From positions 1 through 47,619 of the IMG/VR virus record IMGVR_UViG_2541047828_000005: a stretch of DNA of 47,619 bases; one strand, given 5' to 3'. The notes beneath the pieces are model-generated. The model did no database searches. It was not told the origin of the DNA and saw only the letters and a program-made list of their open reading frames with translations. The position numbers and the translations under genes are program-made. Source of the DNA: a virus. Taxonomy: Duplodnaviria > Heunggongvirae > Uroviricota > Caudoviricetes. The first letter of the stretch is position 1, and each line of letters opens with the position of its first letter. Shown here one piece after another: positions 8,397 through 36,388 of this stretch.

Positions 8397-8867
8397 CTAA
8401 TAAAATACCCAATTTTCTGTTTCTTGGTTGTGTCCAAAGTTATATTCAATATCTGGTGTTGATGCATCAATATTCTTCATCCCATCAACAAGAGTTGATA
8501 CAACAGCCAAATCTTGTTTGATTCTCATTAAATGGTATTTCTTCCGGCGCAATAAACTTTCAATGGCAAGTTTCTTCGTTGGGAATGCAAAAGATCTTTC
8601 TGCATTTTTTGCTACTTTCTTAATTGCATATCTATTTTTCTTTTGTTTCCATTCCTGTAACCACTGATTTGGTGCTGGTTTAAAATTAACAATCCAATGC
8701 GCAGGAACCAACCATGCATAATGCTCTGTCTGATGAAAAGCTATATATTGAAGTGCGAATATTTTGATTCCATCTTCTTCAACTGTCGCCTGGAATCTCC
8801 AGAAAACAGGCATTCCATCATGTTCAGTTTCTGATTCAGGAAAAGGTACGCTCCATGATTTTGTCAT
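8397..8867 (-). CDS. Hypothetical early protein, 156 aa
   Basis: ORF in leftward operon; no family recognised. Confidence 0.5.
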   Translation of the reverse strand: MTKSWSVPFPESETEHDGMPVFWRFQATVEEDGIKIFALQYIAFHQTEHYAWLVPAHWIVNFKPAPNQWLQEWKQKKNRYAIKKVAKNAERSFAFPTKKLAIESLLRRKKYHLMRIKQDLAVVSTLVDGMKNIDASTPDIEYNFGHNQETENWVFY

Positions 8868-8930
8868 ATCTCACCTCAAATAATTCAGTGCAGTGTTTAT
8901 TCTGTTGTTTATGCCAAAAGTAAAGGCCGA

Positions 8931-9554
8931 CTATGCGGCCTCGGAAGGAAGTCCAATCATCTTATTCAAATCTTCTACCCGTAAAGCAGGAAGTGCTGTA
9001 CTTGCTTTATCTGCTTCTTCTGGTAGCAATTCTTTGCTTTCAGGCCAAACTTCAATAAGTCGCTTAACTGTTGTGACTGAGTTCAAAGCAGCCCATACAT
9101 TTGATTCGATATCCTTTTTCTTGGCTTCAAGTTTTTGTTGCAATGCGCAGATTTCATCAAACCTTTTTGTTATTTCGTGTTCTGCGCTAAACATGCATTT
9201 ATCTTTGGTCGGAGTAGGGAGCAATATATCTTCGCCGTTGCCGTCTTTCCCATATGAATGCCATCCAACCCTTCTGCCAGATACAGTCAGATAAATTGAA
9301 GTAGAACTAACATCGTATGAGTAAAATGAACATCCCATCTTTTCAAGTTCTTCACTTATAGCTACCAACTTGGATGATAACTGATCCACTTCCTCAGTTT
9401 TCTTTTTACCGCCAAACGCAATAACTCTGGCGTCAAGTGCAAGCTGGTTCTTTAACTTTGTTACTTCTTTAAGTTCAGTGAAAACCCCAGACTTAATTAA
9501 AGCGTTACGAGCGATTTCCTCTTTCATTCTCGTAGTTAAGCGGATTGATGACAT
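8931..9554 (-). CDS. Hypothetical coiled-coil protein, ~207 aa, directly downstream of N
   Basis: Start chosen at MSSIRL (GAGG SD) rather than track start 9614. Confidence 0.5.
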   Translation of the reverse strand: MSSIRLTTRMKEEIARNALIKSGVFTELKEVTKLKNQLALDARVIAFGGKKKTEEVDQLSSKLVAISEELEKMGCSFYSYDVSSTSIYLTVSGRRVGWHSYGKDGNGEDILLPTPTKDKCMFSAEHEITKRFDEICALQQKLEAKKKDIESNVWAALNSVTTVKRLIEVWPESKELLPEEADKASTALPALRVEDLNKMIGLPSEAA

Positions 9555-9615
9555 ATTAATTCCTCTCAAATAAGTGGTTTGCTGCCTAATTTCATTTTCT
9601 GGCGACCAACACAAG

Positions 9616-9999
9616 TCACCTCGCCGTCAGTTGTTTTGATTTCCGGTAGCCTGCCGCGTAAAGAGCTACATTTGGAAGACATACACCAGTTTCTGGTTGC
9701 CTATGCCCAAACTCATTCGCGTACACAATGGCCGCTCTCTCCAGATTGCGTCTGTATTCTTTCTGTTGCCAGATCACGTCCTGTGCCATGAACTTAATTG
9801 GCTTAGCGTCTTCTATGCGCTCAGGCGTTTCGTGAGTACCTTTAGCCTGAATCTGCGCTCTGCTTAGAGTAGGGCGGTGTAATACTTCTGAACTTATTGC
9901 TTCTTCGCGGGCCAGTACGCCGTTAGCTAATGCCTTTGCCTTTAAACGCTCACGACGACGAGAACGTGAATTGCCTTTGAACTGAGTTCTGCGTGTCAT
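9616..9999 (-). CDS. N: N-type transcription antiterminator (P22 gene 24-like), 127 aa
   Basis: Arg-rich N-terminal motif (TRRTQFKGNSRSRRRERLK) and C-terminus LPNVALYAAGYRKSKQLTAR resembling P22 gp24; AGGAGG SD; downstream of PL. Confidence 0.8.
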   Translation of the reverse strand: MTRRTQFKGNSRSRRRERLKAKALANGVLAREEAISSEVLHRPTLSRAQIQAKGTHETPERIEDAKPIKFMAQDVIWQQKEYRRNLERAAIVYANEFGHRQPETGVCLPNVALYAAGYRKSKQLTAR

Positions 10000-10164
10000 A
10001 TAGACCTCCTGATGAACTTTGGTGGTGTGGTAGGTGGGAGACCCATTTCGACCTGTTTCGGCCTACTTCAATTCGGCAATAGTCCCGCAGGCCTCGCCGC
10101 TTTACGTGCGACATATTCCTGTCCATGAACCCTTCACCACACCCCAAAGTTCACTTTGGTTATT

Positions 10165-10179
10165 GCGCTTTGTCAGCGC
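10165..10179 (-). promoter_or_regulatory. nutL: nutL boxB-like hairpin (GCGCU-GACAA-AGCGC)
   Basis: 5-bp stem with GACAA loop in the PL leader, matching P22 nutL boxB as recalled; no canonical boxA seen. Confidence 0.55.
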
Positions 10180-10247
10180 CGTAGATTCATATTCGAATCG
10201 TTGTATATTCACCGCCCTGGTGAGTAGTGCGTCCTGCTGATGTGTTT

Positions 10248-10310
10248 AGTATCACCGCCAGTGGTATTTATGTCAACACCGCCAGAGATAATTTATCACC
10301 GCAGATGGTT
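10248..10310 (-). promoter_or_regulatory. PL promoter with OL1 (10250-10266), OL2 (10274-10290), OL3 (10294-10310)
   Basis: Operators TATCACCGCCAGTGGTA, CAACACCGCCAGAGATA, TATCACCGCAGATGGTT match lambda; -35 TTGACA and -10 GATACT on minus strand. Confidence 0.85.
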
Positions 10311-10460
10311 ATCTGTATGTTTTTTATATAGATTTATTTTTTTGCAGGGGTGTGTGGCTTGGGAGGTGATCGAGAGATCTGAATTGCGATGTTTAGTGAG
10401 TTGTATCTATTAATTTTCAAATAAATACAATTGGTTATGTGTTTTGGGGCGAACGTGAGG

Positions 10461-10487
10461 CAAAGAAAACCCGGCGCGGTGGCCGGG
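10461..10487 (-). terminator. t-imm-like terminator ending the cI-side operon
   Basis: CCCGGC-gcggtg-GCCGGG hairpin with U-rich run on minus strand, just after stop of the 216-aa gene. Confidence 0.6.
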
Positions 10488-10492
10488 TTTAT

Positions 10493-11143
10493 TTATTGCT
10501 TAGGAGCTTGTTGTGATGACGATTGGTTAGTTGGAGCGCTCGTTAATGGTTGCTGTGTCGGTACCTGTATTATAATTGGAGCCGGGCTGGTTACTGATGG
10601 TGACTTGTCATTGCCGGAGATAATCCAACTTGAGGCTAACATCACGCCAGACAGAATCACAGTAACTAAAGTCAAGCCAACGGCCATCGCCCACTGAGTC
10701 GTTGTAAGTCCCGTTTTCAAACCGCCGATTTCACCTTTAATTTCAGCAATACCTCTCTCAATAGAAGAAAATTGCTGAGTATAATAGGTTTTAAAGTCAG
10801 CTGATTCGCGACGCATTTCCGCAGCAATAGACTCTACCTCTGATTTGTTTTGTGAAAGCTTTGCGTCAAGTTCTTCTCTGGACATTCCGCTCACGCTTAC
10901 CTCCAGGGTATCACTCTTCATCGCTACATCTTCCTTACTTGGGCGCAAACCCGTTTCGTCCATGGCGTATGAAACTCTATTTGATACCTTAGCATCAATA
11001 CCAATACTTTGGTACTGAGATGGATCCCCATAAGGAGAAACGGTTGTCGCTGCTAGGGTTGCACTAACTATAATACTTGGAAGAACTGATGATGTTGTTC
11101 CTGAGGTAGGTTGAACTGAAGAAACTGGCTTCAGTCTTTCCAT
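10493..11143 (-). CDS. Membrane-anchored coiled-coil protein in the rexB position, 216 aa (start uncertain)
   Basis: Ser/Thr-rich N region, coiled coil, single TM (TQWAMAVGLTLVTVILSGVMLASSWII), S/T/P/Q-rich tail; overlaps upstream gene by 13 nt. Confidence 0.55.
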   Translation of the reverse strand: MERLKPVSSVQPTSGTTSSVLPSIIVSATLAATTVSPYGDPSQYQSIGIDAKVSNRVSYAMDETGLRPSKEDVAMKSDTLEVSVSGMSREELDAKLSQNKSEVESIAAEMRRESADFKTYYTQQFSSIERGIAEIKGEIGGLKTGLTTTQWAMAVGLTLVTVILSGVMLASSWIISGNDKSPSVTSPAPIIIQVPTQQPLTSAPTNQSSSQQAPKQ

Positions 11144-11397
11144 AGCCCATTATCCCTGAGAGCTACCTGTAATGATTTTACTAATGCAACAGCTTGATCC
11201 GGGCTCATTGAGACTGACATGTTAGGGGTCAACTCAACTTTTACTTGGAAGCTATTCTTTCCTTGCTCATCAGACTGCATGTGATGCTCAAATTCATGGC
11301 GGTAAAAAGTAATGATTGTTTCAGCACGATCAGGCGTAATAAGAACTGATGTGGCGGTCATGTGCTGAGGTATGATTTTAATAGTGTTATCTGACAT
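11131..11397 (-). CDS. Soluble 88-aa protein in the rexA position
   Basis: Start chosen at MSDNTIKII with AAGGA SD 5 nt upstream; track ORF extends to 11538 without SD. Confidence 0.5.
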   Translation of the reverse strand: MSDNTIKIIPQHMTATSVLITPDRAETIITFYRHEFEHHMQSDEQGKNSFQVKVELTPNMSVSMSPDQAVALVKSLQVALRDNGLWKD

Positions 11398-11589
11398 AAG
11401 TATCCTTTTTGTTTCCTTAGTATTTTTTTGCATTGACATCAGAAATAGCGAATCCACAAGAGTATGAGTAAAGCTAATCAGTTTAGTGATACGGTGACTA
11501 TTAAAGTGGTAAACCACATCAAAGCTCGCAGAGTGCATACCAGGCTGTCACACATGACAAAGTAACGAGGATGCCTGATCTCATAGCGC

Positions 11590-11745
11590 TCAAAGAGACA
11601 TGCCGATAATGGCATTAACCACGCATGACGCCATAAACACGCCGCCAACGATGAAGCTGGCTTGGTTCTTCCTGGTAGCGCCAAGAGTCAACAGAACCAC
11701 TGAAAGGGCAAAAAAAGGTATCGCGATTATGCTGAACGTGTTCAT
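11590..11745 (-). CDS. Candidate 51-aa two-segment hydrophobic peptide just downstream of cI
   Basis: Found by eye: MNTFSIIAIPFFALSVVLLTLGATRKNQASFIVGGVFMASCVVNAIIGMSL; GAGG SD 5 nt upstream; may be spurious. Confidence 0.3.
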   Translation of the reverse strand: MNTFSIIAIPFFALSVVLLTLGATRKNQASFIVGGVFMASCVVNAIIGMSL

Positions 11746-11822
11746 GTTGACCTCAACTTATTTCGATTCTCCATCACCCTTAATCCGCCGCCCCATGTGT
11801 TTGTTGTGATTCGTTGCTGGCC

Positions 11823-12539
<717 letters not shown>

Positions 12540-12546
12540 TTAAATC

Positions 12547-12611
12547 TATCACCGCAAGGGATAAATATCTAACACCGTGCGTGTTGACTATTTTACCTCT
12601 AGCGGTGATAA
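12547..12611. promoter_or_regulatory. OR3 (12547-12563), OR2 (12570-12586), OR1 (12594-12610) with PR (-35 TTGACT 12584-12589, -10 GATAAT 12606-12611) and PRM
   Basis: Lambda operator sequences recognised; OR1 reads TACCTCTAGCGGTGATA (one base differs from lambda TACCTCTGGCGGTGATA). Confidence 0.9.
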
Positions 12612-12627
12612 TGGTTGCATGTACTAA

Positions 12628-12837
<210 letters not shown>

Positions 12838-12875
12838 GTAACACCGCTATTTTCACAATGGACATTCGTCCTACG

Positions 12876-12890
12876 TCGCTGACAAAGCGA
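12876..12890 (+). promoter_or_regulatory. nutR: nutR boxB-like hairpin (UCGCU-GACAA-AGCGA)
   Basis: Same GACAA loop as the nutL hairpin; located downstream of cro. Confidence 0.5.
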
Positions 12891-12975
12891 GTCCCAATAT
12901 ATCTGACCAACTAAGGCCATATGCGTTTCCACGCATACCTTTCAACTAGCTATTCACTATTGGAAATCATAAGAA

Positions 12976-13272
12976 ATGGAACAAACAAGTTACAGCAAAC
13001 TATCCCAGCGTGACGTTGATCGCGCAGAAACAGATTTACTCATCAACCTGTCAACGCTTACCCAGCGCGGTCTGGCAAAGATGATTGGCTGTCATGAATC
13101 GAAGATAAGCAGAACGGACTGGAGATTTATTGCTTCGGTCTTGTGTGCTTTCGGAATGGCATCAGACATCAGTCCGATTAGCAGGGCTTTTAAGTATGCA
13201 TTGGATGGAATCACAAAGAAAAAACGCCCGGCGGCAACCGAGCGTTCTGAACAAATCCAGATGGAATTCTGA
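12976..13272 (+). CDS. CII/C1-family transcriptional activator, 98 aa
   Basis: C-terminus [17 protein letters not shown] identical to lambda CII / P22 C1 as recalled; N-terminus P22 C1-like. Confidence 0.8.
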
Positions 13273-13304
13273 GGGAATTACTGGATCAATCCACAGGAGT
13301 AATT

Positions 13305-13451
13305 ATGACAAAACAACTCAGTCCTTACCAGGACAAAATTCACAAACACATACTACGTGATCGCTTCCTGTCCAGCTTCAAGCAGCCTGGTCGATTTCGG
13401 GCTGAGTTGGAAAAAGTGAAGCTGATGCAGAAGGAGAAAGGTCATGAGTAA
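13305..13451 (+). CDS. Small protein, 48 aa (P22 orf48-like position)
   Basis: Found by eye; AGGAG SD 5 nt upstream; stop overlaps start of O-like gene. Confidence 0.5.
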
Positions 13452-14343
13452 CATATCTAATCTAGCCGAAGCCAGAGAGGCCAGAAGGCTACAACAACCG
13501 CATCAAAGCAGCGGTAAGGGGTATGCCTTGCTGCACCGTAAAATTATGGATGTGCCGTTTTACAAGGACGCAGAAGCTGCGCATCTGTGGGTTCACTTAA
13601 TCCTCAAAGCAAAGCATACGCCTGAGTATGCAATGACTGACGCAGGAGAAATTCTGGTAGGCAGAGGGAAGCTACTTGGCGGTAGAAACTCTCTGGCGTT
13701 TGAAACAGGACTCAAACCAGATCGCGTTCAGTACCTGCTTAGAAAGTTCAAAAAACTCGGCATGATTGACTGGGTTTCACACGGTAAATTCTCAGTTTTC
13801 TCGGTAGAGAAATATGACGATTATCAGTCAAATTTTGTACCAGCAGATTACCAGCAAATTACCACCTCAAAGCCAGCAATACCAATGCCTGCAAGCAATA
13901 CTGTACCAGCAGATTACCAGCAAATTACCACAGATAAAGAATATAATAATATTATCTCTAATACTGACGTATTAGAGAGTGCCACAGCAGACAAAAAGTC
14001 TGACAAGAAAAAACCTTCCGTTAGCTGTCAGGATGTTGTCGATGCTTACCACGAAATCCTTCCTGAAGCGCCAAGAATCCGCGCACTGAATGACAAGCGT
14101 AAAAACCAGATCCGAACGTTCTGGCGCAAAGCCGGAGTGATAACCCGCCAGCTTGACGGGCATGGGTTCACGATGCAGGACTGGAGAAATTATTTGAGCT
14201 ACGTAGGCGAAAATTGCCGATGGATGTTCGAAGAGCGCCCAAACCATCAGCGAGGAACCGTCTGGCACAAAAAGGGATTTGATTTCCTGCTTAACGATAA
14301 TACCTACCTGAAAGTTCGTGAGGGTGAACACGATGACCGATAA
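13444..14343 (+). CDS. Replication initiator (O-like / P22 gene 18-like), 299 aa
   Basis: Position after cII; contains internal iterons encoding [10 protein letters not shown] twice; followed by DnaB-type helicase. Confidence 0.75.
13838..13930. repeat. ori: Replication-origin iterons: two perfect 28-bp direct repeats (13838-13865, 13903-13930) followed by AT-rich stretch
   Basis: GTACCAGCAGATTACCAGCAAATTACCA repeated; AT-rich run at 13931-13960; lies inside the initiator gene as in lambda ori. Confidence 0.6.
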
Positions 14344-15769
14344 TTTTTATGCGCCGCCCCATAGCATCGAGGCAGAGCAGGCGGTGATTGGTGGATTGCT
14401 TCTGGATGATGACAGCAGTGAGCGCGTCCAGAAAGTTCTGGCGATGCTGAAGCCTGATTCATTTTACAGCCGACCACACAAAATCCTTTTCGAAGAAATA
14501 ACCAGAATGCACCGGGAGCAAAAGCCAGTAGATGGCCTGACGCTTTTCGATGAACTGGAGCGTAAATCGTTAACGGCGTCTGTTGGCGGTTTTGCTTATA
14601 TCGCTGAGATCGCAAAGAACACGCCAAGCGCAGCAAACATCGTTGCTTATGCAATGCAGGTTCGCGAAACCGCAATGGAACGCTACGCCATCAACCGCAT
14701 GACTGAAGCGACGGAATTGCTCTATTCCCGCAATGGAATGACTGCAACGCAGAAGTACGAAACTATTCAGGCGATTTTCACGCAACTGACAGACCATGCA
14801 AAAACCGGATCGCGTCGCGGCCTTCGCTCATTTGGTGAGGTCATGGAAGACTGGGTTAGCGACCTTGAGAAGCGATTTGATCCATCAGGCGAACAACGAG
14901 GAATGAGCACAGGGATCCCATCGCTGGACAGGATGCTGTCACCGAAAGGTCTGGTGAAAGGCTCTCTGTTTGTCATTGGCGCTCGCCCTAAGATGGGGAA
15001 AACGACGCTATACAGCCAGATGGCAATCAATTGCGCAGTGCATGAGAAAAAGCCCGCTCTGATGTTCAGCCTTGAAATGCCAGGTGATCAGATACTGGAA
15101 AAACTGGTAGGGCAGAAGTCTGGTGTTAACCCGAATATTTTTTACCTTCCGGCGACAAATGACGCCGATGACGGCTATCAGGGTGATTACGATGGTGACT
15201 TCAACAGGGCGATCGAAACAGCCAATCGCTTGAGTGAAATCGACATGCTTTACATCGACGACACGCCGGGATTATCTCTGGCTCAAATCGTCAGCGAAAG
15301 CCGTCGAATCAAGCGAGAAAAAGGATGTGTTGGCATGATTCTGGTCGATTACCTGACACTAATGACTGCTGAGAAGGCCGATCGCAACGACCTTGCTTAC
15401 GGCATGATCACCAAAGGACTGAAGAACCTTGCCAAAGAGCTTGATTGCGTTGTTGTGCTTCTGACACAGCTTAACCGCGCACTGGAAAGCCGAACCAATA
15501 AACGCCCATTACCAAGTGACTCACGAGATACAGGGCAGATTGAACAGGATTGCGATTATTGGGTTGGGATCCATCGTGAAGGCGCTTTTGATGACAGTGT
15601 TCCACCTGGTGAAACCGAACTAATCCTTCGTCTCAATCGTCATGGCAATACCGGCACGGTGTATTGCATTCAGGCAAATGGCGCTATTTATGACACAGAC
15701 CAACAGTCTGCTGAAATGCGCCGCCGTGAACGCGAGGAACCGCAATCCAAGAAGAAAGGAGGATTCTGA
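14333..15769 (+). CDS. DnaB-family replicative helicase (P22 gene 12-like), 478 aa
   Basis: Walker A GARPKMGKTT, DnaB-like motifs (LFVIGARP..., VDYLTLM); start at MTDNFY with GAGGG SD. Confidence 0.85.
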   Translation: MTDNFYAPPHSIEAEQAVIGGLLLDDDSSERVQKVLAMLKPDSFYSRPHKILFEEITRMHREQKPVDGLTLFDELERKSLTASVGGFAYIAEIAKNTPSAANIVAYAMQVRETAMERYAINRMTEATELLYSRNGMTATQKYETIQAIFTQLTDHAKTGSRRGLRSFGEVMEDWVSDLEKRFDPSGEQRGMSTGIPSLDRMLSPKGLVKGSLFVIGARPKMGKTTLYSQMAINCAVHEKKPALMFSLEMPGDQILEKLVGQKSGVNPNIFYLPATNDADDGYQGDYDGDFNRAIETANRLSEIDMLYIDDTPGLSLAQIVSESRRIKREKGCVGMILVDYLTLMTAEKADRNDLAYGMITKGLKNLAKELDCVVVLLTQLNRALESRTNKRPLPSDSRDTGQIEQDCDYWVGIHREGAFDDSVPPGETELILRLNRHGNTGTVYCIQANGAIYDTDQQSAEMRRREREEPQSKKKGGF

Positions 15770-15798
15770 TGACCATCTACATCACTGAGCTAATAACA

Positions 15799-15829
15799 GG
15801 GGCTATTTACACAGTAGCCCTTTTTTATT
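15799..15829 (+). terminator. Rho-independent terminator (tR2-like) between replication and nin genes
   Basis: GGGGCTA-tttacacag-TAGCCC hairpin followed by TTTTTTATT. Confidence 0.6.
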
Positions 15830-15853
15830 GGATTAAGAACGAGGGGGATCCTG

Positions 15854-16066
15854 ATGGACACCGTTAACGGAATGTGTTCAGACGCACCGCGTGCCAAAAA
15901 ATGTAAGTGCGGAAAATCACCGACAATATTCGACATGGAGAACGGGTGCCAAATCTACTGCGCTAACCACGCTGTTGTGGCGGCCGCGAATTATCGCAGT
16001 GCGGTAACGGAGTGGAATAACCTGAAATCTGTTAGAGAGGGAAGTCATGAAAAAACTAACCTTTGA
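15854..16066 (+). CDS. Small Cys-rich hypothetical protein, 70 aa
   Basis: CKCG...C..YC cysteine pattern; GAGGGGG SD. Confidence 0.45.
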   Translation: MDTVNGMCSDAPRAKKCKCGKSPTIFDMENGCQIYCANHAVVAAANYRSAVTEWNNLKSVREGSHEKTNL

Positions 16067-16487
16067 AATTCGATCTCCAGCACATCAGCAAAACGCTATT
16101 CACGCGGTACAGCAAATTCTTCCAGACCCAACCAAACCAATCGTAGTAACCATTCAGGAACGCAACCGCAGCTTAGACCAGAATCGAAAGCTTTGGGCTT
16201 GCCTTGGTGACGTCTCTCGTCAGGTTGAATGGCATGGTCGCTGGCTGGATGCAGAAAGCTGGAAGTGTGTGTTTACCGCAGCATTAAAGCAGCAGGATGT
16301 TGTTCCTAACCTTGCCGGGAATGGCTTTGTGGTAATAGGCCAGTCAACCAGCAGGATGCGTGTAAGCGAATTTGCGGAGCTATTAGAGCTTATACAGGCA
16401 TTTGGTACAGAGCATGGCGTTAAGTGGTCAGACGAAGCGCGACTGGCTCTGGAGTGGAAAGCGCGATGGGGAGATCGGGCTGCATGA
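16047..16487 (+). CDS. ninB: NinB (Orf-family recombination mediator), 146 aa
   Basis: Near-identical to lambda NinB as recalled. Confidence 0.9.
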   Translation: MKKLTFEIRSPAHQQNAIHAVQQILPDPTKPIVVTIQERNRSLDQNRKLWACLGDVSRQVEWHGRWLDAESWKCVFTAALKQQDVVPNLAGNGFVVIGQSTSRMRVSEFAELLELIQAFGTEHGVKWSDEARLALEWKARWGDRAA

Positions 16488-17011
16488 CTATCAAATCAAA
16501 TACGCCGGCACACGACAAGGACTGCTGGCAAACGCCGCTTTGGCTTTTTGATGCACTGGATATTGAGTTTGGATTCTGGCTGGATTCAGCTGCTAGCGAC
16601 AAAAATGCTCTGTGCGCTCACTGGCTAACTGAGGCCGACGACGCGCTCAATTCTGAGTGGGTAAGTCACGGTGCAATCTGGAATAACCCACCGTACAGCA
16701 ATATCAGGCCGTGGGTGGAAAAAGCCGCTGAGCAGTGCATACAACAGCGACAGACGATAGTGATGCTTGTGCCAGAGGATATGTCAGTCGGATGGTTCAG
16801 CAAGGCTCTGGAGAGTGTCGACGAAGTTCGCATTATCACTGATGGACGGATTAATTTTATCGAACCATCGACAGGGCTGGAGAAGAAGGGAAACAGCAAA
16901 GGCTCCATGCTGCTGATTTGGCGACCGTTCATCAGTCCTCGACGGATGTTTACTACCGTATCCAAAGCGGCATTGATGGCGATCGGGCAGGGCGTCAGGA
17001 GGGCGGCATGA
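16484..17011 (+). CDS. Orphan DNA N6-adenine methyltransferase (phage Dam-like), 175 aa
   Basis: NPPY motif in [14 protein letters not shown]; start ATG overlaps ninB stop (ATGA). Confidence 0.75.
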
Positions 17012-17190
17012 GGCGACAGCGACGAAGCATCACCGACATCATCTGCGAAAACTGCAAATACCTTCCAACGAAACGCTCCAGAAATAAACGCAAGCCAATC
17101 CCAAAAGAATCTGACGTAAAAACCTTCAACTACACGGCTCACCTGTGGGATATCCGGTGGCTAAGACATCGTGCGAGGAAAACAAGGTGA
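17008..17190 (+). CDS. ninE: NinE, 60 aa
   Basis: [22 protein letters not shown]... matches lambda NinE as recalled. Confidence 0.8.
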
Positions 17191-17357
17191 TTGACCAAAA
17201 TCGAAGTTACGAACAAGAAAGCGTCGAGCGGGCTTTAACGTGCGCTAACTGCGGTCAGAAGCTGCATGTGCTGGAAGTTCACGTGTGCTCAGATTGCTGC
17301 GCAGAACTGATGAGCGATCCGAATAGCTCGATGCACGAGGAAGAAGACGATGGCTAA
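17145..17357 (+). CDS. ninF: NinF-like protein (true start may be GTG at 17188)
   Basis: [33 protein letters not shown]... matches lambda NinF as recalled. Confidence 0.7.
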
Positions 17358-17955
17358 ACCAGCGCGAAGGAAATGCAAAATATGCAAGGAATGGTTTCAC
17401 CCGGCATTCTCAAATCAGTGGTGGTGCTGCCCGGAACACGGAACTCAGTTAGCACTCAAACTACAAAGTAAACAGCGAAAAAAAGCGGAAAAAGCAGCAG
17501 AGAAGAAACGACGACGAGAGGAGCAGAAACAGAAAGATAAACTTAAGATTCGAAAACTCGCCTTAAAACCCCGCAGTTACTGGATTAAACAAGCCCAACA
17601 AGCCGTAAACGCCTTCATCAGAGAAAGAGACCGCGACTTACCATGTATCTCGTGCGGAACGCTCACGTCTGCTCAGTGGGATGCCGGGCATTACCGGACA
17701 ACTGCTGCGGCACCTCAACTCCGATTTGATGAACGCAATATTCACAAGCAATGCGTGGTGTGCAACCAGCACAAAAGCGGAAATCTCGTTCCGTATCGCG
17801 TCGAACTGATTAACCGCATCGGGCAGGAAGCAGTAGACGAAATCGAATCAAACCATAGCCGCCATCGCTGGACTGTCGAAGAGTGCAAGGCGATCAAGGC
17901 AGAGTACCAACAGAAACTCAAAGACCTGCGAAATAGCAGAAGTGAGGCCGCATGA
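17350..17955 (+). CDS. ninG: NinG (Rap-like recombination protein), 201 aa
   Basis: Matches lambda NinG as recalled ([26 protein letters not shown]...). Confidence 0.9.
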
Positions 17956-18158
17956 CGTTCTCAGTAAAAACCATTCCAGACATGCTCGTTGAAGCATACG
18001 GAAACCAGACAGAAGTAGCACGCAGACTGAAATGTAGTCGCTGTACGGTCAGAAAATACGTTGATGATAAAGACGGGAAAATGCACGCCATCGTCAACGA
18101 CGTTCTCATGGTTCATCGCGGATGGAGTGAAAGAGATGCGCTATTACGAAAAAATTGA
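17952..18158 (+). CDS. ninH: NinH, 68 aa
   Basis: Matches lambda NinH as recalled. Confidence 0.85.
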
Positions 18159-18801
18159 TGGCAGCAAATACCGAAATATTTGGGTAGTTGGCGATCTGCA
18201 CGGATGCTACACGAACCTGATGAAAAAACTGGAGACGATAGGATTCGACACCAAAAAAGACCTGCTTATCTCGGTTGGCGATTTGGTTGATCGCGGTACA
18301 GAGAACGTCGAATGCCTGGAATTAATCACATTCCCCTTGTTCAGAGCTGTACGTGGAAACCATGAGCAAATGATGATTGATGGCTTATCAGAGCGTGGAA
18401 ACGTCAATCACTGGCTGTTTAATGGCGGTGGCTGGTTCTTTAATCTCGATTACGACAAAGAAATTCTGGCTAAAGCTCTTGCCCATAAAGCAGATGAACT
18501 TCCGTTAATCATTGAACTGGTGAGTAAAGGTAAAAAATATGTCATCTGCCACGCCGATTATCCTTGTGACGAATACGAATTTGGAAAGCCAGTTGATTAT
18601 CAGCAGGTAATCTGGAACCGCGAACGAATCAGCAACTCACAAGACGGGGTCGTGAAAGAAATCAAAGGCGCGGACACGTTCATCTTTGGTCATACGCCAG
18701 CAGTGAAACCACTCAAATTTGCCAACCAGATGTATATCGATACTGGGGCAGTGTTCTGCGGAAATCTCACATTGATTCAGGTACAGGGAGAAGGCGCATG
18801 A
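18136..18801 (+). CDS. ninI: Ser/Thr protein phosphatase (lambda PPase, NinI), 221 aa
   Basis: Metallophosphatase motifs GDLHG, GDLVDRG, GNHE; matches lambda PP from MRYYEKIDG. Confidence 0.9.
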
Positions 18802-19421
18802 GACTCGAAAGCGTAGCTAAATTTCATTCGCCAAAAAGCCCGATGATGAGCGACTCACCACGGGCTACGGCTTCCGACTCTCTTTCCGGTACTGATGTGA
18901 TGGCTGCTATGGGGATGGCGCAATCACAAGCCGGATTCGGAATGGCTGCATTCTGCGGTAAGCATGAACTCAGCCAGAACGACAAACAAAAGGCTATCAA
19001 CTATCTGATGCAATTTGCACACAAGGTATCGGGGAAATACCGTGGTGTGGCAAAGCTTGAAGGAAATACTAAGGCAAAGGTACTGCAAGTGCTCGCAACA
19101 TTCGCTTATGCGGATTATTGCCGTAGTGCCGCGACGCCTGGGGCAAGATGCAGAGATTGCCACGGTACAGGCCGTGCGGTTGATATAGCCAAAACGGAGC
19201 AGTGGGGGAGAGTTGTTGAGAAAGAGTGCGGAAGATGCAAAGGTGTCGGCTATTCAAGAATGCCAGCAAGCGCCGCATATCGCGCTGTAACGATGCTAAT
19301 CCCAAACCTTACTCAACCCACCTGGTCACGCACTGTTAAGCCGCTGTATGACGCTTTGGTGGTGCAATGCCACAAAGAAGAGTCAATCGCAGACAACATT
19401 TTGAATGCGGTCACACGTTAG
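18798..19421 (+). CDS. Q: Late-gene antiterminator Q, 207 aa
   Basis: Matches lambda Q as recalled; followed by PR'. Confidence 0.9.
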
Positions 19422-19463
19422 CAGCATGATTTCCACGGATGGCAACATATTAACGGCATGATA

Positions 19464-19492
19464 TTGACTTTTTGAATAAAGTTGGGTAAATT
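19464..19492 (+). promoter_or_regulatory. Late promoter PR' (-35 TTGACT 19464-19469, -10 TAAATT 19487-19492) with adjacent qut region
   Basis: Matches lambda PR' core as recalled; 17-bp spacer. Confidence 0.6.
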
Positions 19493-19527
19493 TGACTCAA
19501 CGATGGATAAATGCACTCGTTAAATAA

Positions 19528-19557
19528 AGCCCTGAGTTAATAGCTCGGGGCTTTTTG
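19528..19557 (+). terminator. tR'-like intrinsic terminator ~55 nt after PR' start
   Basis: AGCCCTGAG-ttaatag-CTCGGGGCT hairpin (one G-U pair) followed by TTTTT. Confidence 0.55.
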
Positions 19558-19783
19558 CGTTTTAATCACGACCTTTCTGAAAGCACATCAAACCAAATAC
19601 CAGACAGACAAAAATAATCACCTTATCCGCTGTGGCTACGGTGCGGTGTGCTTTGCATAAAAGAAAACCAGCGCAATGGCTGGCTTCGTGAAAGCGGGTG
19701 GCAAGAGGTTGCGCTAACAACCTCCTGCCGTTTTGCCCTTATTCCTAATTAAATAGAGCAAATCCCCTTATTGGGGCTAAGAC

Positions 19784-20107
19784 ATGAAGATGCCAGAAAA
19801 ACATGACCTGTTAGCCGCCATTCTCGCGGCAAAGGAACAAGGCATCGGGGCAATCCTTGCGTTTGCAATGGCGTACCTTCGCGGCAGATATAATGGCGGT
19901 GCGTTTACAAAAACAGTAATCGACGCAACGATGTGCGCCATTATCGCCTGGTTCATTCGTGACCTTCTCGACTTCGCCGGACTAAGTAGCAACCTCGCTT
20001 ATATAACGAGCGTGTTCATCGGCTACATCGGTACTGACTCGATTGGTTCGCTTATCAAACGCTTCGCTGCTAAAAAAGCCGGAGTAGAAGATGGTGGAAA
20101 TCAATAA
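19784..20107 (+). CDS. S: Holin S (dual start ATG-AAG-ATG giving S107/S105), 107 aa
   Basis: Matches lambda S as recalled. Confidence 0.95.
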
Positions 20108-20567
20108 TCAACGTAAGGCGTTCCTCGATATGCTGGCGTGGTCGGAGGGAACTGATAACGGACGGCAGAAAACCAGAAATCATGGTTATGACGTCATTGT
20201 TGGCGGAGAGCTATTCACTGATTACTCCGATCACCCTCGCAAACTTGTCACGCTAAACCCCAAACTCAAATCAACAGCCGCCGGACGCTACCAGCTTCTT
20301 TCCCGTTGGTGGGATGCCTATCGTAAGCAGCTTGGCCTGAAAGACTTCTCTCCGAAAAGCCAGGACGCTGTGGCACTGCAACAGATTAAAGAGCGTGGCG
20401 CTTTACCGATGATTGATCGCGGTGATATTCGTCAGGCTATCGACCGTTGCAGCAATATCTGGGCTTCACTGCCGGGGGCTGGTTATGGTCAGTTCGAGCA
20501 TAAGGCTGACAGCCTGATTGCAAAATTCAAAGAAGCTGGCGGAACGGTCAGAGAGATTGAGGTATGA
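20091..20567 (+). CDS. R: Endolysin R (lytic transglycosylase), 158 aa
   Basis: Matches lambda R as recalled. Confidence 0.95.
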
Positions 20568-21022
20568 GCAGAGTAACCGCGATTATCTCAGCTCTGGTTA
20601 TCTGCATCATCGTTTGCCTGTCATGGGCTGTTAATCATTACCGTGATAACGCAATCGCCTACAAAGAGCAGCGCGATAACAAGGCCAGTGAACTGGAGAA
20701 GGCGAACGCCACCATCGCTGACATGCGGAAGCGTCAACGTGATGTAGCAGAACTCGACGCAAGATACACAAAGGAGCTTGCTGATGCTAACGCGACTATC
20801 GAAAGTCTCCGTGCTGATGTTTCTGCTGGGCGTAAGCGCCTGCAAGTCGCCGCCACCTGTGCAAAGTCAACGACCGGAGCCAGCGGCATGGGCGATGGAA
20901 AAAGCCCAGGACTTACAGCAGATGCTGAACTCAATTATTACCGTCTCCGAAGTGGAATCGACAAGATAACCGCGCAGGTTAACTACCTGCAGGAATACAT
21001 CACCACGCAATGCCTGAAATAA
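20564..21022 (+). CDS. Rz: i-spanin Rz, 152 aa
   Basis: N-terminal TM and first ~35 aa match lambda Rz; remainder divergent coiled coil. Confidence 0.85.
20778..20969 (+). CDS. Rz1: o-spanin Rz1-like lipoprotein embedded in Rz (+1 frame)
   Basis: Signal sequence with lipobox-like LLGVSAC followed by Pro-rich segment; nested in Rz as in lambda. Confidence 0.6.
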
Positions 21023-34578: not shown

Positions 34579-36388
34579 TAAGTCGATCGTCGACATTGAC
34601 GTAAATGACGACAAGTTTGTCGCGTTTATGGAAAGGTTTCGCGAGTACCAGAGCGCGCTGGATGATTTACCGGAAGCCTGGCGGGTAGCTGCCGTTGGTA
34701 TTGGCGAAAGCAGCAAGCAGACCGAAAAGGCCAAAGGTGAGACGAAGGAGTTAGGCGCGGAGTTTAATGCCGTGGCCGAGGCCATTCTGACTATCAACAG
34801 TGGTATCGATCGGCTCAATACCAACCTGGAAGACTCGAAGAAAAAGCAGGACGAATTCAACAAAAGTACTCGCTCTGCGAAGGGATTCCTCAGCGATGCG
34901 ACGAAAGACGCTAAATCGCTGGCAGGGCATATCAAGGAAGCGACGGCCAGCCTTCTGTCATGGGGTGGCATTGTCGGGATATTTACCGGCGTCCTTGGCG
35001 TTGGCGGCCTGTTCGGCATCAACCGGCTGGCTGCCACCACCGGTGCCCAGCGGTTTACTTCTCTCGGGCTTGGGACGAGTATCGGCGCACTTGATTCCAC
35101 CGCCATAAACTACCAGAAAGCACTCGGTAATCCGACGGGTACGCTGGGCGCTATCCGCGATTCGCAAATGGACCTGTCGAAGCGCTGGACGTTTCAGGCG
35201 ATGGGGATTAACAACCCCGACCAGGACCCGGCCAAACTGCTCCCGCAGATGATCCGTAATGCGCGCGATATCTTCGTGCAGAACGGCAGCACGCTGCAGG
35301 GCGCACAGGCGCACGGCCTGACAAACTTCTTTACACTGGACGACCTGAACCGCTTCAAAAACATGAGCGATGAAGAGATCACCGCCATGGAGAAGCGCGC
35401 GCAGCAGGATGCGCGTATGTTGCAAATTACCGACCAGCAGGCGCGCCAGTGGCAGGATTTTAACGTCCAGCTCGACTACAGCAGCCAGAGCATCAGGAAT
35501 ACGTTTGTGCGCGGCCTGGGTCCTCTCACACCTCAACTGAGAAAACTGTCTGATGCGCTGTCAGGCGCGATCGATACCGTCCTGAAATCCCCCGAACTCG
35601 GCAAGTGGATTGATGCGCTTGCCGGCGGCATTGAGCGATTCGGTAATTACCTCGCTTCTCCTGAATTTTCCACAGATGTAAGCAACTTTATGGACAAAGT
35701 AGAGAAAATGGGAAATCTAATTGGCAAGGTTATTGATTGGGTAACAGGGAAAGCGAGTATCTCTACTGCGGATATATCATCCGGGTCAACGATGTTGAGC
35801 CCAAGCACCATCATCGATCCGAAAACGGGAAAATCCTATACTCCTGGAAGCAATGATGACCCGCATGTATGGGGCTGGCTCAAGGGTGTTAGGCGCTTCT
35901 TTGAAGATGGAACCGTTAAAGCTGTTGATCCCACACCTGCAAATACTTCCGACAGAAACAGGACTATTGCAGATCGATTTAATAATCCGGGAAATCTGCG
36001 GTGGGCTGAAGGATATAGCAGCGAGAATACGAGAAGCGGTAAATTTGCCGTCTTCCCAACGCTGGATGAAGGCGTACTGGCGGCGACAAAGCAACTTCAA
36101 ATGTATGGCGCTAAAGGAATAAATACGGTAGGAGATATTGTAAGAAAATGGGCTCCTCCTAAGGAAAATAATACCGCTGAGTATATTCGGCATGTGGTTA
36201 AAACTACTGGATTTAATGAGAATCAGAAACTGAATCTCAATGATCCTCAGGTTATCGCGAAACTCATTTCTGCTATATCTCAAAAAGAAGGGGCTGGTAG
36301 CAGAGTTTCTGAGAGCACAGTCATTCAGATCTATAACAATACCGGTGGGAATGCAGTGGTAACTTCAGCGCAATTGGGGGCGAGGTAA
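34571..36388 (+). CDS. Putative tail tape measure protein, 605 aa
   Basis: Position after chaperone; start at MVAKS with AAAGAGG SD. Confidence 0.6.
   Translation: MVAKSIVDIDVNDDKFVAFMERFREYQSALDDLPEAWRVAAVGIGESSKQTEKAKGETKELGAEFNAVAEAILTINSGIDRLNTNLEDSKKKQDEFNKSTRSAKGFLSDATKDAKSLAGHIKEATASLLSWGGIVGIFTGVLGVGGLFGINRLAATTGAQRFTSLGLGTSIGALDSTAINYQKALGNPTGTLGAIRDSQMDLSKRWTFQAMGINNPDQDPAKLLPQMIRNARDIFVQNGSTLQGAQAHGLTNFFTLDDLNRFKNMSDEEITAMEKRAQQDARMLQITDQQARQWQDFNVQLDYSSQSIRNTFVRGLGPLTPQLRKLSDALSGAIDTVLKSPELGKWIDALAGGIERFGNYLASPEFSTDVSNFMDKVEKMGNLIGKVIDWVTGKASISTADISSGSTMLSPSTIIDPKTGKSYTPGSNDDPHVWGWLKGVRRFFEDGTVKAVDPTPANTSDRNRTIADRFNNPGNLRWAEGYSSENTRSGKFAVFPTLDEGVLAATKQLQMYGAKGINTVGDIVRKWAPPKENNTAEYIRHVVKTTGFNENQKLNLNDPQVIAKLISAISQKEGAGSRVSESTVIQIYNNTGGNAVVTSAQLGAR

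Follow-up and report, generated by a model that had tools for sequence, protein, structure and literature searches.

The DNA analysed here, an E. coli prophage sequence of 47,619 nucleotides (nt) from virus record IMGVR_UViG_2541047828_000005 (Caudoviricetes), is referred to at its full length as the window. Between its lambda-type cI repressor gene and the t-imm-type terminator that closes the immunity operon, where lambda carries rexA and rexB, the window holds three minus-strand genes. In order of reading these encode p51, a protein of 51 amino acids (aa) with two transmembrane helices (11590..11745; unannotated), gp49, an 88-aa protein (11131..11397), and gp48, a 216-aa membrane protein (10493..11143), the latter two named after their homologues in phage HK97. 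All three open reading frames (ORFs) reported in a preliminary description of this stretch were found in place. Ribosome-binding sites precede p51 (GAGG, 5 nt ahead of the ATG) and gp49 (AAGGA, 5 nt upstream), and gp49 is translationally coupled to gp48, whose ATG overlaps the gp49 stop codon (ATGgaaagacTGA). Locus comparisons point to gp49 and gp48 as a conserved, repressor-linked pair, which we tentatively interpret as an exclusion module expressed in the lysogen.

The flanks of this slot are those of lambda. The first gene of the operon is cI (11823..12536, minus strand; Pfam HTH_3 and Peptidase_S24), whose product is 98.7% identical to lambda CI; Cro is 98.5% identical to its lambda counterpart, and the DNA of the cI region matches lambda at 97.6% identity over 1025 bp. 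PRM and OR lie beside cI at 12547-12612, where OR3 and OR2 are exact lambda matches. The left edge of the slot, downstream of the terminator, is marked by the PL promoter and the operators OL1-OL3 (10248..10310, minus strand), with a PL-like promoter at 10276-10248 and exact lambda matches to OL1, OL2 and OL3 at 10250, 10274 and 10294, in agreement with the lambda-type assignment of cI, OL and OR made at the outset. Lambda DNA homology ends at approximately 10488, at t-imm, and restarts at approximately 11826, at the cI stop, so the cassette is an exact substitution of rexAB, and its proposed position in the rexA-rexB slot of the immunity operon is correct.

The t-imm-type intrinsic terminator (10461..10490, minus strand) lies just upstream of PL/OL. 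It has a GC-rich stem of 9 bp (10467-10490) followed by UUUUCUUUG, and its predicted fold of -19.1 kcal/mol (z = -3.9) was equalled by none of 200 shuffled sequences. The terminator noted earlier at 10461-10487 is therefore real, with its 5' arm misplaced by a few bases, since the hairpin begins 2 nt past the gp48 stop codon. The 94 nt at window positions 10400-10493 are 91.6% identical to lambda 35736-35829 (the rexB end plus t-imm), and the t-imm boundary is common to prophages with other cargo in this slot. No terminator, and no fold better than those of shuffled sequences, was found in the cI-p51 gap or in the spacer between p51 and gp49, so transcripts from PRM and PRE are most simply expected to read through. 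From this lack of an intervening terminator we infer that the cassette is co-transcribed with cI in the lysogen. An Rfam scan of the whole window returned zero RNA families.

The DNA of the cassette is 99.7% identical to phage HK97, in which genes 48 and 49 encode Gp48 and Gp49 (accessions AAF31127 and AAF31128) with no function annotated. The HK97 genes and those of the window are the same, with essentially no difference; it is the carrier prophage that differs. Phage HK225 carries the same 1.39 kb at 99.8% identity behind a different repressor, and the unannotated phage record PDP110P1 holds a third near-identical copy (99.9%). Of 5426 complete E. coli genomes, 52 carry the cassette, every copy being at least 99% identical, and the RefSeq label for the gp48 and gp49 proteins is hypothetical. 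Genes 48 and 49 have been known as ORFs since publication of the HK97 genome, and our literature search, with incomplete coverage of the relevant literature, found no paper on their function. The earlier view of the cassette as unrecognised thus has to be given up for gp48 and gp49, which are HK97 genes belonging to PHROGs 5820 and 26809, and stands for p51, which is unannotated in HK97 as well.

At the protein level gp48 and cluster P0001 are 100% identical, and gp48 gives a full-length profile match to phrog_5820 (E = 9.6e-69, residues 20-210), a PHROG without function. Its variable, disordered N-terminal region (N-region; 1-86) is followed by a conserved helix (87-117) and by a coiled coil that includes a Gly-rich heptad stretch. 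A transmembrane segment comes next, at about 150-172, and the last 43 aa or so make up a P/Q/S-rich tail in which the motif PIIIQVP occurs. An AlphaFold2 model based on a 90-sequence alignment (predicted local distance difference test, pLDDT, 65.6) consists of two confident helices, one spanning 89-138 and the other, beyond a Gly-rich kink, spanning 145-175 and containing the transmembrane segment; the rest is disordered. The model and the conservation of the family both bear out the coiled coil, single transmembrane helix and S/T/P/Q-rich tail first read from the sequence. Because gp48 has no signal peptide and some 150 residues precede its only hydrophobic segment, it is predicted to be tail-anchored in the inner membrane, the N terminus facing the cytoplasm and the C terminus the periplasm. 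Residues 20-36 were considered as an N-terminal signal or transmembrane segment and rejected; they are weakly hydrophobic (mean hydropathy ~1.35) and absent from most relatives, and the coiled coil is taken as cytoplasmic for these reasons.

Few relatives of gp48 were recovered by a word-based search. A profile search of 1.84 billion representative sequences returned 210 family representatives (109 at E <= 1e-10), or about 200 clusters at 50% identity. Among the 150 of these 210 matches that were listed, nearly all are about 90-280 aa long, and the few long, multi-stretch matches look like coiled-coil repeats. Conservation and architecture were compared across 90 aligned family members, all of which match phrog_5820. 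Conservation is highest where the helix begins, at SREELDAKLxxNKAEV...AAEMR (residues 87-117), followed by Q150-W151 ahead of the membrane segment and by the tail proline, P189, which is nearly invariant. The tail is otherwise low in complexity and P/Q/S-rich, with a median length of 35 aa (range 4 to 60 aa), and the N-region is variable and missing in some members.

Searches of the three cassette proteins against Pfam, NCBIfam and PADLOC gave nothing above cut-off. A Foldseek search with the gp48 model, one of the checks named in the preliminary description, found no related structure in the PDB (0 matches) or BFVD (best E = 6.9), and the gp48 profile run against PDB sequences returned coiled-coil noise (best E = 6.6e-4, a short tail fibre). 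The weak Pfam matches seen in the gp48 family (CCDC90-like/DUF1640, Baculo_PEP_C) reflect coiled-coil repeats and a terminal transmembrane segment. The profile of PF07798 (CCDC90-like, DUF1640) scores gp48 at 12.6 bits (E = 0.12) against a gathering cut-off of 33.5 bits, which is below membership, and reaches E <= 0.01 in 27 and E <= 1e-5 in 5 of the 90 relatives. Both PF07798 and XhlA resemble gp48 in having a cytoplasmic coiled coil that ends in one C-terminal transmembrane helix. The XhlA-type likeness suggested earlier is therefore one of layout, as a search of the window proteins with the XhlA profile (PF10779) gave no match at E <= 1. The gp48 gene, moreover, lies in an immunity operon and not in a lysis cassette, and no bacterial function is defined for PF07798 or XhlA from which a role for gp48 could be carried over.

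The gp49 protein matches phrog_26809, again a PHROG without function, over its full length (E = 2.7e-62, residues 1-88). It is described as soluble, with beta strands and a C-terminal helix, and its AlphaFold2 model has a pLDDT of 44. Divergence from its Klebsiella orthologue (66% identity; proportions of nonsynonymous and synonymous differences, pN = 0.24 and pS = 0.90) indicates that gp49 is under purifying selection. Longer versions of 135 or 102 aa were rejected, given that the maximal ORF of the Klebsiella orthologue is 88 aa and that the ribosome-binding site fits the 88-aa start; the 102-aa form annotated by PGAP and in HK225 extends into the spacer and finds no support in that orthologue. 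A search of PDB profiles with gp49-like partners gave zero matches. The untranslated spacer between p51 and gp49 (11398..11589, minus strand; 192 nt) contains a palindrome, TGTCA-TGTG-TGACA, at 11546-11559. No consensus promoter or terminator was detected in it, and its fold is unexceptional (z = +0.5). Within the spacer there might be an internal promoter, or a site for a regulator, analogous to lambda pLIT.

A locus search with a 10-sequence alignment returned mostly identical copies, with 3 loci among genome contigs; the comparison described here covers 13 distinct loci from at least eight genera. At all 13, a small gene on the same strand (84-147 aa) lies upstream of the gp48 homologue and often overlaps its start. 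On this comparison, the conserved unit is the gp49-gp48 pair and not the set of three genes. The cassette was initially counted as a three-gene unit, and three genes are indeed present; it is p51, of chromosomal origin, that stands apart from the pair. In nine of the 13 loci a prophage repressor immediately precedes the pair on the same strand, and the repressor types are unrelated. S24-type repressors are found in HK97, Yersinia (L003 and L033), Kosakonia (L007), Buttiauxella (L034) and L049, and short Rac-type helix-turn-helix repressors in Klebsiella (L004), L032, Sodalis (L035) and L047, the last with the pair between the repressor and kilR-ydaE-recE. In two loci (L008, from Xenorhabdus, and L030) the pair adjoins an Arc/Mnt-like gene and an antirepressor gene, the same kind of region in which P22 sieA adjoins mnt (PMC10883804). 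Two loci are on contigs too short for the repressor context to be judged.

At least four or five unrelated sequence types can be told apart among the upstream partners. One group comprises gp49 and its Klebsiella orthologue, with a weak link to the L049 partner; a second comprises the partners from Kosakonia, L047, Buttiauxella and Yersinia, remotely related to the first (hhalign E = 1.4e-4, probability 52%). The partners at L030, L008, L032/L035, L050 and L051 are unrelated to the gp49 groups and gave no Pfam match. Partner and gp48 N-region are inherited as one block, and the conserved core follows a separate history. For HK97, the nearest core is that of Yersinia L003 (66.7%), the Klebsiella core being only 37% identical, whereas the nearest partner (66%) and N-region (E = 8.5e-5) are those of Klebsiella. 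Similarly, Y. aleksiciae L033 has its partner and N-region (68%) in common with L003, while its core is closest to that of L032 (62.8%), a locus with an unrelated 147-aa partner. Such co-inheritance is what one would expect if an exchangeable recognition module were coupled to a constant effector. In the Yersinia intermedia prophage L003, two extra genes (4746-5691) lie between the repressor and the pair; their products of 132 and 135 aa each have an N-terminal transmembrane helix, look like paralogues and are probably further lysogen-expressed membrane cargo.

The p51 protein has two hydrophobic segments separated by TRKNQ, a loop that is probably cytoplasmic. Its homologues form 36 clusters, 34 of them full-length matches (67-98% identity), and almost every one has a length of exactly 51 aa. 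Comparison with an Atlantibacter chromosomal homologue gave pN = 0.109 and pS = 0.674 (dN/dS ~0.07). The constant length of the homologues and the purifying selection on them indicate that p51 is a real gene. Homologues occur in chromosomal, non-prophage settings in Atlantibacter, Lelliottia and Klebsiella (L038-L044), near frmRA-like genes, cybB, pmrD and dinI; this chromosomal family, from Enterobacteriaceae, is without a Pfam or NCBIfam model and is often unnamed. Among E. coli genomes, p51 is found only in the 52 that carry the cassette, and is annotated in none of them. In Klebsiella, Kosakonia and Yersinia the gp49-gp48 cassettes lack it. Because its homologues sit in ordinary chromosomal neighbourhoods and the cassettes of other genera do without it, p51 is best read as a captured host-type two-helix membrane protein, an add-on that evolves independently of the gp49-gp48 pair. 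A comparable case is another E. coli prophage with the same cI, which has a YoaK-family small membrane protein right after the repressor. HK97 gp15, which resembles the host protein YebO, is likewise a small membrane protein with host chromosomal relatives. In HK225 (L002), two plus-strand ORFs, HK225_045 and HK225_046, are annotated over p51 at 3507-3852 (approximately window 11590-11790). These are probably mis-annotations, since the minus-strand p51 frame is under purifying selection.

The slot between cI and N is among the most strongly expressed places in a lysogen, and of the abortive-infection systems known, rexAB, its occupant in lambda, is the oldest. Mosaic diversity is concentrated in the cI-N region, which houses the abortive-infection genes rexAB and bstA and shares the strong repressor promoter (PMC8585504), in keeping with the expectation that this slot typically holds exclusion or abortive-infection genes. 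Some prophages with the same lambda-type cI and N carry rexAB between cI and t-imm. Elsewhere, in E. coli prophages with the same cI (L052, L053, L054, L055 and L045), the slot holds a YoaK-family small membrane protein with HicA, HicB and a 141-aa protein; a DUF6932 protein with a 310-aa protein; a DUF2335 protein; a ParA-family protein; or a 185-aa protein with a DUF1828 protein. Most of these alternative cargoes are candidates of the same kind as the gp49-gp48 cassette. BstA of the Salmonella prophage BTP1 is also encoded directly downstream of the repressor, presumably under the same promoter, and acts in abortive-infection defence (PMC8585504); it differs in consisting of one large cytoplasmic protein whose self-immunity relies on a DNA element, and is unrelated in sequence and architecture.

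The closest parallel is with RexA/RexB, which occupy the identical slot from cI to t-imm in the same order, a soluble protein followed by a membrane protein. A soluble and a membrane protein encoded together by a prophage is the layout of both RexAB and Sbash gp30/gp31, of which the latter are proposed to abort infection via loss of membrane potential (PMC6426596). The features that define RexAB-type systems are a DUF4747 soluble protein and a membrane protein with four transmembrane helices (PMC6426596), and in both the window's pair differs. RexAB-type systems also act by excluding T4 rII and other phages, and membrane potential is lost in the process. With 88 aa as against 279 aa for RexA, gp49 lacks DUF4747, has no Pfam match above noise and gave no BLASTP alignment to lambda RexA even at an E limit of 100. 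The single C-terminal transmembrane segment and long coiled coil of gp48 contrast with the four segments of RexB, to which it aligns by BLASTP at E = 3.4. All comparisons of window proteins with RexA and RexB gave E > 2, and with no Pfam match either, the lack of resemblance noted in the preliminary description is upheld. A further difference from RexAB-type pairs, including that of Gordonia phage CarolAnn, is the extra small membrane gene, p51, in the HK97-type cassette. By analogy of layout, we propose that the pair may share a sensor-plus-membrane-effector logic with RexAB-type systems.

Judged only on position and architecture, the gp49-gp48 pair could be a lysogen-expressed, Rex-analogous two-component exclusion module, a reading to which we assign a probability of roughly 0.4. 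Under this model cI and the cassette would share transcripts that start at PRM in the lysogen, or at PRE while lysogeny is being established, and stop at t-imm. The products would be a small cytoplasmic protein, gp49, and an inner-membrane protein, gp48, with a long cytoplasmic helix and a short periplasmic tail. Interacting with each other, gp49 and the variable gp48 N-region would make up the exchangeable part that recognises a superinfecting phage, and the conserved helix, transmembrane segment and tail of gp48 would serve as the effector. On triggering, the coiled coils would oligomerise and the transmembrane helices bundle, the inner membrane would be compromised and the infection would abort; p51 would be a separate add-on outside this core. 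More tentatively, and in our view doubtful as yet, the gp48 family might be the effector of an undescribed class of two-component prophage defence that is widespread in Enterobacterales, draws its specificity from a swappable partner and the 5' end of the effector gene, and resides in repressor-linked slots of the rexAB/bstA/sieA type.

Several results weigh against an exclusion module of this kind. PADLOC-DB v2 (2023) contains 0 families for the three window proteins, and gp48 family members gave scattered weak coiled-coil noise only in PADLOC. With one transmembrane helix per chain, gp48 forms no channel alone; RexB and Sbash gp31 have four. The HK97 reports consulted describe an exclusion function for gp15 only and none for gp48/gp49 (PMC10883804, PMC11436027). 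With a model at pLDDT 44, no fold backs a sensor role for gp49. The cassette is rare, at 52 of 5426 complete E. coli genomes, and its copies, all at least 99% identical, are nearly uniform. Finally, the co-inheritance of partner and N-region could reflect mere adjacency together with recombination in the DNA that encodes the conserved helix.

An unlikely alternative is exclusion at the stage of entry, in which the tail or membrane segment of gp48 obstructs the conduit formed by tape-measure or ejection proteins, as for HK97 gp15 and P22 SieA, and gp49 is a factor for assembly or stability. Known injection blockers are small, prophage-expressed inner-membrane proteins (PMC10883804), and gp48 is itself a membrane protein, in which a motif predicted to be periplasmic, PIIIQVP, is conserved and P189 is nearly invariant; the homologues at L008 and L030, beside mnt-like and ant genes, occupy a sieA-like position. 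In sequence, gp48 is unrelated to both gp15 and SieA, and no exclusion-annotated PHROG matched the window proteins or the 90 gp48 relatives. SieA has three transmembrane segments and acts alone (PMC10883804), whereas gp48 is single-pass, tail-anchored and always partnered. The model is weakened chiefly because the best-conserved part of the family is the cytoplasmic helix (87-117), not the low-complexity tail of 4 to 60 aa, and because the cytoplasmic partner is both obligatory and highly variable, for which an entry block offers no obvious need. HK97, in addition, already has gp15 for this purpose.

We give a similarly low chance to a role that is not anti-phage at all, in which the pair tunes the lysis-lysogeny switch or induction of the prophage, or alters host envelope physiology by lysogenic conversion. 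The shared slot and soluble-plus-membrane layout would fit here too, as RexA/RexB are reported to bias the CI-Cro switch (bioRxiv 10.1101/2021.04.19.439022, PMC11077077). A precedent is 434 Hex, which is co-transcribed with the repressor and reportedly affects repressor cleavage (PMC3564112), and the strict association of the pair with repressor genes of several types would be in line with it. That very range of repressors weakens the idea, since the same cassette follows unrelated ones: the HK225 copy, 99.8% identical, is behind a different repressor, and homologues follow both S24-type and Rac-type repressors. At L008 and L030 the homologues are, moreover, away from the main repressor, and no DNA-binding or repressor-like domain was detected.

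Less probable still is an addiction pair similar to a toxin-antitoxin system, with gp48 a membrane toxin restrained by gp49 and any anti-phage effect secondary. The genes are small and translationally coupled, HicAB, a toxin-antitoxin system, fills the same slot in another E. coli prophage, and tail-anchored coiled-coil membrane proteins of the YqjD/ElaB class can inhibit growth. Neither Pfam nor NCBIfam, however, shows any similarity to a toxin or antitoxin family, and the upstream partners are too diverse for one antitoxin family; toxin-antitoxin behaviour and abortive infection can, in any case, coexist. That the ORFs are there by chance or are decaying without function, as might be read from the lack of an assigned function since 2000 and the low AlphaFold2 confidence over most of gp48 and gp49, is effectively refuted by purifying selection on p51 and gp49, by the 210 gp48-family representatives with conserved architecture and by the conservation of pairing, overlap and position across genera.

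What is new here is the conserved pair and its modular structure, its linkage to diverse repressors, and the reality and chromosomal origin of p51. As HK97 is a standard laboratory phage with lambda immunity, its replacement of rexAB is directly testable, with lambda as an isogenic comparison. A defence function would add a family of about 200 clusters (50% identity) with a single-helix membrane effector and a recombining recognition part, and would make the pair a convenient system in which to study how prophages direct a constant effector to new targets. Any other function would show that the slot carries other lysogen functions as well. Independently of this, current annotation pipelines overlook a conserved small membrane protein, p51, in all 52 E. 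coli genomes that carry it.

The prophage that carries the cassette in the window is a mosaic and not HK97 itself, since its structural genes resemble those of Klebsiella phage vB_Kpn_Chronis (95.6% identical; DUF1073 portal, baseplate-J-type tail); its early/regulatory region is 96.9-97.6% identical to HK106 and HK97 (mosaic parts, window 1331-21022 and 23000-46878). A prophage of E. coli MS 119-7 has the cassette at 100% identity together with a similarly annotated structural region. Directly downstream of N (9616-9999) lies a 227-aa ORF (8931-9614, minus strand) that is absent from HK97, in which the gap between gp45 and N is 58 nt. The ORF resembles an insertion into the PL operon, and in the few E. 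coli prophages that have it the annotation reads 'Nmad5 family putative nucleotide modification protein'.

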